Sequence record: PQ765507
Length of the DNA: 64,000 bases
From: Escherichia phage 212
Direction: 5' to 3' (one strand)
The stretch's first letter is position 1, and each line of letters opens with the position of its first letter. The position numbers were made by a program, and so were the translations under genes. A model generated the notes under the pieces. The model was not told where the DNA came from. It did no database searches and saw nothing but the letters and a program-made list of their open reading frames with translations. Below, in pieces: positions 47,636 through 48,471 of the stretch.

Positions 47636-47995
47636 ATGGTAAGAGTTATCACTTTAGCCATAGGGTTAGTATTCAGCATGGGAGGAATAGCTTCAGTACA
47701 GAGCGACGACAACAACAGCATCATAGAATATGCAACGAGGACGGCTAAAGATTATTGCGCATCAAGCAATGTGGATTGTATAATCCAGTTCAGTGCCAAG
47801 CTCACCGCAGCCTATAAAGATGGTCAAAATGATGTTGAACATACGCTTTTGAAAAAGAATGTATTATCCAACAAATATGAAAAGAAATTATTTGAAATGG
47901 ATTGCATTCTATCAAGTGCAAAATATAAAGCGGCCTGCACCAGTATGGTTGACAGGTTAGTGGATTCATATAATAGAGGATTGAACTCTAAATGA
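47636..47995 (+). CDS. small secreted/periplasmic protein with 4 Cys
   Basis: 119 aa; signal-peptide-like N-terminus MVRVITLAIGLVFSMGGIASV. Confidence 0.45.
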   Translation: MVRVITLAIGLVFSMGGIASVQSDDNNSIIEYATRTAKDYCASSNVDCIIQFSAKLTAAYKDGQNDVEHTLLKKNVLSNKYEKKLFEMDCILSSAKYKAACTSMVDRLVDSYNRGLNSK

Positions 47996-48471
47996 TTACC
48001 CAGTATATTAAGGGCGATATCGTCGCCCTCTTTCTTCAAGGCAATATTATTGCACATGGTTGCAACTGCTTTCATACAATGGGTTCCGGTGTAGCTGGAC
48101 AGTTGGCGAAGGCTTATCCAAAAGTTTTAGAAATAGATAAAACCACTACTGAATACGGTTCTCGTGATAAATTAGGCGATATGTCTATTGTTTTTAAACA
48201 TAAGCCTACAGGTTTTGGCATGTGCTATAACTTGTATACGCAATACGAACCAGGCCCTAATCTTGATTATGGTGCTTTAGTAAATTGTATGATAGAATTA
48301 AATCTACAAGCAGAAACCCTTTTGTTTAAACCGGTAATTTATATTCCTCGTATTGGTTGTGGTATTGCAGGTGGAGATTGGGATAAGGTATCTCAATTAA
48401 TTGATATGTTTACTCCTGATATTGATTTAATAGTGGTGGATTATGAAAGCACATTACCCGCATCCGTTTGA
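47992..48471 (+). CDS. macro domain protein (ADP-ribose binding/hydrolase fold)
   Basis: 159 aa; GDIV...IIAHGCNCFHTMGSGVAGQLAKAY and IPRIGCGIAGGDW align with macrodomain N-terminal Gly-rich and C-terminal G-x-G motifs. Confidence 0.65.
   Translation: MITQYIKGDIVALFLQGNIIAHGCNCFHTMGSGVAGQLAKAYPKVLEIDKTTTEYGSRDKLGDMSIVFKHKPTGFGMCYNLYTQYEPGPNLDYGALVNCMIELNLQAETLLFKPVIYIPRIGCGIAGGDWDKVSQLIDMFTPDIDLIVVDYESTLPASV

Follow-up and report, generated by a model that had tools for sequence, protein, structure and literature searches.

What does a small stand-alone macrodomain do for a T4-like phage, and by which chemistry would it act? The question is raised by the gene at positions 47992-48471 (+ strand) of a 64,000-nucleotide stretch of Escherichia phage 212 (sequence record PQ765507), hereafter the window. 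The gene is orthologous to T4 tk.4, which has been renamed adfM, for 'anti-DarT factor Macrodomain' (bioRxiv 10.1101/2025.11.20.689424). With a probability of about 0.7, we consider that its product functions as an orphan 'antitoxin' of the phage, erasing the adenosine diphosphate ribose (ADP-ribose) attached by the toxin DarT2; the mechanistic detail is less certain than the function. Both the macro/A1pp annotation of the gene in the T4 record and its anti-DarTG2 role are already known. What is added here beyond the preprint is a modest mechanistic nuance: judged by sequence, the catalytic centre of the Tk.4 family is not of the DarG kind.

A macrodomain protein orthologous to T4 Tk.4

The open reading frame (ORF) runs over 159 codons from ATG to TGA, according to the ORF list and translation, and the opposite strand over 47992-48471 is closed, with many stop codons in that frame. 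The sequence-only reading of the window had claimed a macrodomain pattern for a 159-residue protein here; the ORF is exact, and all the motifs it quoted are present, namely GDIV at residues 8-11, AHGCN at 21-25, MGSGVAG at 30-36 and IPRIGCGIAGG at 118-128. The profile search and structure prediction that it had proposed as checks lead to the same fold. The protein matches the Pfam Macro family PF01661 with 33.2 bits (E 5.4e-08; curated gathering cut-off 22 bits), covering profile positions 2-117 of 118, and PHROG 335, a family named 'phosphatase', with an E value of 9e-71. As a single sequence it matches the solved macrodomains BT1257 of Bacteroides thetaiotaomicron (PDB 2FG1/2AFC; E 4e-11) and Mycobacterium tuberculosis DarG (MtbDarG; 8e-05), in addition to yeast Poa1p, Streptomyces coelicolor SCO6735 and human TARG1. 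A 52-sequence family profile gave E values of 5e-19 for BT1257, 4e-17 for TARG1, 7e-16 for SCO6735 and 8e-14 for Poa1p, with 7e-12 and 8e-10 for the two DarG macrodomains. The AlphaFold2 model, calculated from a 62-sequence alignment, has a mean predicted local distance difference test score of 93.6 and a predicted template modelling (TM) score of 0.88. It adopts a three-layer α/β/α fold with a central mixed sheet and two Gly-rich ADP-ribose-binding loops. The best fold matches of this model in the PDB, as found by Foldseek, are all macrodomains, the first of them being TARG1, BT1257, Poa1p and DarG; TARG1 (also OARD1; 4J5R/4J5S) ranks at the top with an E value of 6e-10 and a TM score of 0.73-0.82. 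In structure and profile, the window protein lies nearest to TARG1, DarG, SCO6735, BT1257 and Poa1p, and not to the MacroD, PARG or viral nsP3-type macrodomains. It is a macrodomain, well above chance, and since its sequence, profile, model and fold matches agree, it belongs to the ALC1/TARG1-like class.

Whether T4 itself has an ortholog was a point on which the sequence-only reading could not decide, and the answer is tk.4. The window protein shares 57% identity with T4 Tk.4 (NP_049723) over 155 residues in a gapless alignment (E 2e-69), and the hidden Markov model (HMM) of the Tk.4 family scores the two proteins at 214 and 201 bits, respectively. The remaining 43% of residues are unlike, whereas the family-invariant residues, including Q84, are alike. 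T4 Tk.4 has 155 residues, compared to 159 here, the window protein possessing four extra C-terminal residues, and the second Gly-rich loop reads GCGIAGGDW in the window protein and GAGIGKGNW in T4. The T4 record labels NP_049723 as 'phosphatase; contains A1pp phosphatase motif'. In T4 the gene order is regB-vs.1-vs-tk.4-tk.3-tk.2-tk.1-tk, and the window and Shigella phage SP18 likewise have tk.4 flanked by vs and tk.3 and placed upstream of tk; the tk.4/tk.3 overlap, however, amounts to 29 nucleotides (nt) in the window and 4 nt in T4. The top megablast matches of the gene are Escherichia phage P479 (99.8%) and SP18 (DNA identity 98.8%), in which it is annotated as tk.4.

At the DNA level, megablast gave 350 phage records that carry the gene, almost all of which are T4-like phages infecting Escherichia, Shigella, Yersinia and Salmonella, and the ORF is conserved over its full length in 344 phage records by DNA and in 2469 by protein. 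Protein-level relatives occur in 2857 phage records, which comprise T4-like, rV5-like, FelixO1-like, PAK_P1-like and KVP40-like myoviruses and some jumbo phages. This spread is consistent with a survey that found macrodomains in 41% of myoviruses (PMC9503650). A bacterial family member with 39% identity was seen in Pelagimonas phthalicica as a stand-alone chromosomal gene (6001-6459 of the stretch examined) with housekeeping-type neighbours; no DarT-like neighbour was found beside it, in this single case checked and with no survey made. As a single example, it agrees with a picture in which the relatives in bacteria, like SCO6735 and BT1257, are orphan enzymes.

Glutamine at the position of the DarG and TARG1 lysine

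An alignment of 62 family sequences, with identities down to 38%, was used to describe the active site. Fourteen residues are invariant in all 62: H22, G23, N25, C26, G33, A35, D49, N80, Y82, Q84, P119, G122, G124 and W130. C24 is present in 58 of them, and M30 and G31 are kept in at least 90% of the family. H22-G23-C24-N25 (48055..48066, + strand as for all elements of the gene) forms an H-x-C-N motif where strand 2 ends, and lines the pocket on its distal-ribose side. The first Gly-rich ADP-ribose-binding loop, M30-G31-S32-G33-V34-A35-G36 (48079..48099), aligns with MGKG/MGAG of DarG and TARG1; it is followed by the segment N80-L81-Y82-T83-Q84 (48229..48243) and by the second Gly-rich, diphosphate-binding loop P119-RIGCGIAGGD-W130 (48346..48381). 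The sequence-only reading had made its macrodomain call depend on these Gly-rich loops, which are indeed present and conserved; the catalytic lysine of DarG and TARG1, however, is absent. The invariant H22 also aligns with the histidine of Poa1p LIHSCNC, inferred from the chain numbering to be H23, and H23A is among the deposited Poa1p mutants, which would suit a phosphatase, as would the place of Poa1p among the top sequence and fold matches.

The DarG sequences of Thermus aquaticus (TaqDarG, 5M31/5M3E) and M. tuberculosis (5M3I) were taken from the PDB and aligned to the Tk.4 family. N80-L-Y-T-Q84 aligns with N-F-P-T-K80 of DarG and Y-L-I-T-K84 of TARG1, and the Q84 column agrees among HMMER (for TARG1), hhalign (for TaqDarG, MtbDarG and SCO6735) and a common hmmalign of all references. 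In TaqDarG, K80 of the FPTKKHW motif is the key catalytic residue, the K80A mutant being inactive, and is the structural equivalent of TARG1 K84, which acts together with D125 (PMC5179494). The catalytic dyad K84/D125 of TARG1 thus corresponds to Q84/A126 in the window protein, where A126 stands at the D125 position by HMMER and hmmalign; the PRIGCG loop is common to both proteins. Compared to DarG, which has FPTKKHW and PPLGxGNGGL, the window protein has NLYTQYEP and PRIGCGIAGG, and its HGCN stands against N-T-V-N (hmmalign). Moreover, DarG possesses a C-terminal DarT-binding domain and an adjacent darT, whereas the window protein is a single domain encoded between vs and tk.3. The match to the NCBIfam DarG model NF048014 is confined to the macrodomain part and reaches 28.2 bits, where the cut-off is 250; the PADLOC DarG model gave 27.6 bits. 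With these weak scores, and with neither the catalytic lysine, nor the C-terminal domain, nor a toxin neighbour, membership of the DarG family was rejected.

A glutamine at this position is known from SCO6735, which has no Lys/Asp pair but carries Gln85 at the lysine position, and whose Q85A and Q85E mutants are fully inactive (PMC9411070). SCO6735 is efficient in stripping DarT-modified thymidine of its ADP-ribose and protects cells from DarT; in the proposed route, Gln85 serves to position the distal ribose, and thymine O2 is protonated by a water that the Val25 backbone holds (PMC9411070). Its sequence was recovered from PDB 5E3B with a chimeric probe, and subtracting the 20-residue tag restores the published numbering (V25, K34, Q85, K89). 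Q84 of the window protein aligns with SCO6735 Q85 and with the corresponding Gln of BT1257 in phmmer, hhalign and hmmalign, and H22-G23-C24-N25 with H24-V25-C26-N27 of SCO6735 and H-I-C-N of BT1257. An alignment of BT1257 from a single-sequence C-terminal PDB query was misregistered around the Gln; it is the profile, hhalign and hmmalign alignments that match the published structure-based alignment. The second loop, PRIGCGIAGGDW, has near-identical counterparts in PRIGCGLAGGTW of SCO6735 and PRIGCGLAGGKW of BT1257. Altogether, the motifs H-x-C-N, N-x-x-x-Q and PRIGCG(I/L)AGGxW are common to the Tk.4 family and these two enzymes.

In hhalign, SCO6735 reached a score of 96 (probability 98.6%, E 5e-16), compared to 78 for both TaqDarG and MtbDarG and 63 for gp104 of phage PhiKZ, while the family HMM gave 69.7 bits for BT1257, 62.8 for TARG1, 57.3 for SCO6735, 48.8 for MtbDarG, 44.1 for TaqDarG and 35.5 for gp104. 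Some features differ between the window protein and its bacterial relatives: SCO6735 V25 corresponds to a glycine (G23), the window protein is acidic (isoelectric point 4.9, net charge -6), whereas SCO6735 (9.6) and BT1257 (8.4) are basic, and it is encoded by a phage, whereas both of the others are chromosomal. Because the Gly-rich loops are kept but the DarG/TARG1 catalytic lysine is absent, the chemistry of the window protein is more likely SCO6735-like than DarG-like.

Probable counteraction of DarT2 and the alternatives

The function was assigned to tk.4 by T4 genetics. In a HIDEN-SEQ study posted as a preprint in November 2025, a T4 transposon library was grown on DarTG2-expressing Escherichia coli, and tk.4 was the sole significant hit; a clean tk.4 deletion makes T4 sensitive to DarTG2 (bioRxiv 10.1101/2025.11.20.689424). 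The gene is dispensable on a plain K-12 host and depleted specifically with DarTG2, and the authors, noting that Tk.4 is structurally similar to M. tuberculosis DarG, suggested that it removes ADP-ribose from DNA (bioRxiv 10.1101/2025.11.20.689424). Reversal of DarT-type DNA ADP-ribosylation, which the sequence-only reading had listed as a candidate role, matches these results. A separate T4 protein, AdfN (gene 30.3, a NADAR enzyme), counters the guanine-modifying DarTG1 and not the thymidine-modifying DarTG2 (PMC11825919).

By analogy with T4, we infer that the function carries over to this phage. A stand-alone, cytoplasmic, single-domain ALC1/TARG1-like macrodomain would act as the orphan 'antitoxin' of the phage: host DarT2 would ADP-ribosylate thymidines of single-stranded phage DNA and thereby block replication, the two Gly-rich loops of the enzyme would bind the ADP-ribose, and hydrolysis of the N-glycosidic bond between ribose and thymine would release free ADP-ribose and restore the DNA. 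As the active site lacks the DarG/TARG1 lysine, an SCO6735-type, lysine-independent catalysis is envisaged, in which the invariant Q84 would position the distal ribose and the transition state, and a water held by the backbone near H22-G23 would protonate the thymine leaving group.

Several points weigh against this proposal. The DarTG2 phenotype is shown for T4 only, by genetic evidence from a preprint, and is extrapolated here by analogy across 57% identity and a genus border (the window phage being SP18-like, Gaprivervirus); no biochemical work on any Tk.4-family protein was found in the literature searched. SCO6735 itself has K34 and, on a mobile loop, K89, both reported to bind DNA (PMC9411070). 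The window protein lacks the 5-6 residue 'mobile loop' insertion after the Gln, with its K89, and has S32 at the K34 position, which is Ala in 45 of the 62 family members. In addition, the mechanism of SCO6735 rests on mutagenesis and molecular dynamics, with no trapped intermediate, and the dead mutant Q85A retains an inhibitory effect on DarT in vitro that is stronger than that of the DarG or TARG1 mutants (PMC9411070).

This last observation leads to a different explanation, that DarT2 is neutralised mainly by binding, either by sequestering the toxin or by shielding the ADP-ribosylated sites, rather than by hydrolysis. The missing DarG/TARG1 lysine would agree with a binder, and the T4 genetics do not separate binding from catalysis. 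H22, N25, Q84 and both Gly-rich loops, however, are invariant over 62 sequences down to 38% identity, as would be expected of an enzyme acting on a fixed small-molecule moiety and not of a binder tracking diverse DarT2 surfaces. Together with the absence of the C-terminal DarT-binding domain of DarG from this 159-residue, single-domain protein, and the requirement of SCO6735 Q85 for hydrolysis (PMC9411070), this makes neutralisation by binding unlikely.

A second alternative, which we likewise regard as improbable, is that the protein reverses ADP-ribosylation of protein or RNA, either the phage's own Alt/ModA/ModB marks or those set by host defences, and that protection from DarTG2 is a side activity. 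The Alt and Mod enzymes of T4 modify arginine, a linkage that, to our knowledge, the ALC1/TARG1-like class does not cleave, which counts against the first of these targets. SCO6735 and TARG1 do hydrolyse Asp/Glu-linked protein and uracil-linked RNA ADP-ribose in addition, and T4-like phages encode ADP-ribosyltransferases of their own (PMC9503650). Yet T4, though carrying tk.4, is strongly restricted by the RNA-adenine ADP-ribosyltransferase CmdTAC (PMC11618068), and the dispensability of tk.4 on plain K-12, set against its specific depletion with DarTG2, does not fit a general role of this kind (bioRxiv 10.1101/2025.11.20.689424).

Finally, the product could be a Poa1p-like phosphatase of ADP-ribose-1''-phosphate, or some other enzyme hydrolysing soluble ADP-ribose derivatives, that clears small metabolites or immune signals rather than DNA adducts. 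The 'phosphatase' label of T4 Tk.4 and PHROG 335 would agree with this, as would the survey's view that derivatives of ADP-ribose with low molecular weight are the main targets of phage macrodomains (PMC9503650), but it is improbable too: the only reported phenotype of the ortholog is specific to DarTG2, the label in T4, SP18 and PHROG 335 is a name transfer, the literature searched yielding no assay to back it, no ADP-ribose-1''-phosphate source was identified for a T4-type infection, and TARG1, DarG and SCO6735 all cleave thymine- and uracil-linked ADP-ribose.

A hydrolytic role of a phage macrodomain against DarT2 has been demonstrated for a second protein called AdfM, gp104 of the chimallivirus PhiKZ (12518-13006 of the stretch examined), which relieves DarT2 toxicity and, in vitro, takes ADP-ribose off an oligonucleotide modified by DarT2 (PMC13309987, Cell Rep 2026). 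Both gp104 and the window protein are stand-alone phage macrodomains of approximately 160 residues and similarly acidic. As gp104 is equally acidic and yet active on single-stranded DNA, overall charge was dropped as an argument against activity on DNA. At the active site, gp104 keeps the DarG-type FPTKDNW and shares 30% identity with TaqDarG (BLASTP, E 5e-26); this BLASTP alignment was used because the gp104-family hhalign and hmmalign alignments were shifted by two residues near FPTK and are unreliable there. Against the window protein, gp104 matches in short fragments only (E 0.001 over 23 residues). Equivalence of the two proteins was rejected in view of this DarG-type active site and remote similarity. 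Since gp104 keeps FPTKDNW and is barely detectable against the window protein, the two AdfM proteins represent different subtypes: the name, independently given, covers a T4 Tk.4 of Gln type and a gp104 of Lys type, with different catalytic centres. Tentatively, and at somewhat less than even odds, the chimalliviruses recruited a DarG-type, lysine-dependent enzyme, and the T4-like phages a Gln-dependent one of the SCO6735/BT1257 type, probably from stand-alone bacterial genes and not from a DarTG operon. In that case, the chemistry of the T4-type enzyme would be lysine-independent, and the enzyme might, like SCO6735, act on Asp/Glu-linked protein and uracil-linked RNA ADP-ribose as well, as a broader eraser of defence ADP-ribosylation.

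Gene neighbourhood and meaning for T4-like phages

The start of tk.4 is preceded by a Shine-Dalgarno-like GAGG at 47976-47979 (+), 12 nt before the start codon, and overlaps the stop codon of vs in the sequence ATGA at 47992-47995 (+). This arrangement suggests that tk.4 may be co-transcribed and translationally coupled with vs; the genes of the region are tightly packed and co-directional, and tk.3 (48443-48655, +) starts 29 nt before the tk.4 stop. A consensus scan of 46400-49700 gave 10 promoter-like (sigma-70-like) and 3 terminator-like sites, with 11.4 and 2.1, respectively, expected from shuffled sequence; neither signal exceeds that expectation. A terminator-like hairpin, AGGGCGATATCGTCGCCCT at 48011-48029 (+), lies inside the tk.4 coding sequence, approximately 20 nt past the start codon, and has an 8-bp stem followed by a T-rich tail; as the regional count of such sites does not exceed the shuffled expectation, it may be a chance occurrence.

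Upstream of tk.4 lie vs.1 (47091-47633, +), with 66% identity to T4 Vs.1 and a match to PHROG 600, which has no assigned function, and vs (47636-47995, +), with 45% identity to T4 Vs and annotated as a valyl-tRNA synthetase modifier. These neighbours had been described in the sequence-only reading as secreted, cell-wall-targeting proteins. The first part is supported in that both Vs.1 and Vs have signal-peptide-like N-termini that are conserved in T4 (for Vs, MVRVITLAIGLVFSMGGIASVQS here and MTKILVLCIGLISFSASASAD in T4). The second part is no more than a lead and concerns Vs.1 only, whose motifs WQESS, YGIFQ and SYNAGW resemble family-1 lytic transglycosylases and whose Pfam SLT match, with 15.3 bits, is below the cut-off of 21.3; a sequence search of the PDB with Vs.1 found no match. 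Vs.1 may be a periplasmic murein-cleaving enzyme. The exported-looking N-terminus of Vs is hard to square with binding of the cytoplasmic valyl-tRNA synthetase, and vs is the T4 gene most strongly depleted in minimal medium (bioRxiv 10.1101/2025.11.20.689424). Beyond the conserved adjacency, nothing was found that links Vs.1 or Vs functionally to tk.4. Downstream, tk.3 is followed by a second small gene (48631-48858, +), and the two match recently defined Pfam families of unassigned function, DUF7202 with 127 bits and PF23895, 'Phage zinc binding domain', with 102 bits.

For the T4-like phages, the assignment replaces a label. Hundreds of their genomes carry this gene as 'hypothetical protein' or 'phosphatase', which can now be read as tk.4/adfM, a macrodomain and probable anti-DarTG2 factor, and this relabelling is relevant to the choice of therapeutic phages for hosts that carry DarTG2. 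For the chemistry of the family, the T4 type offers a small, well-behaved and naturally lysine-free enzyme with which the still-unproven Gln/water mechanism of SCO6735 may be tested.

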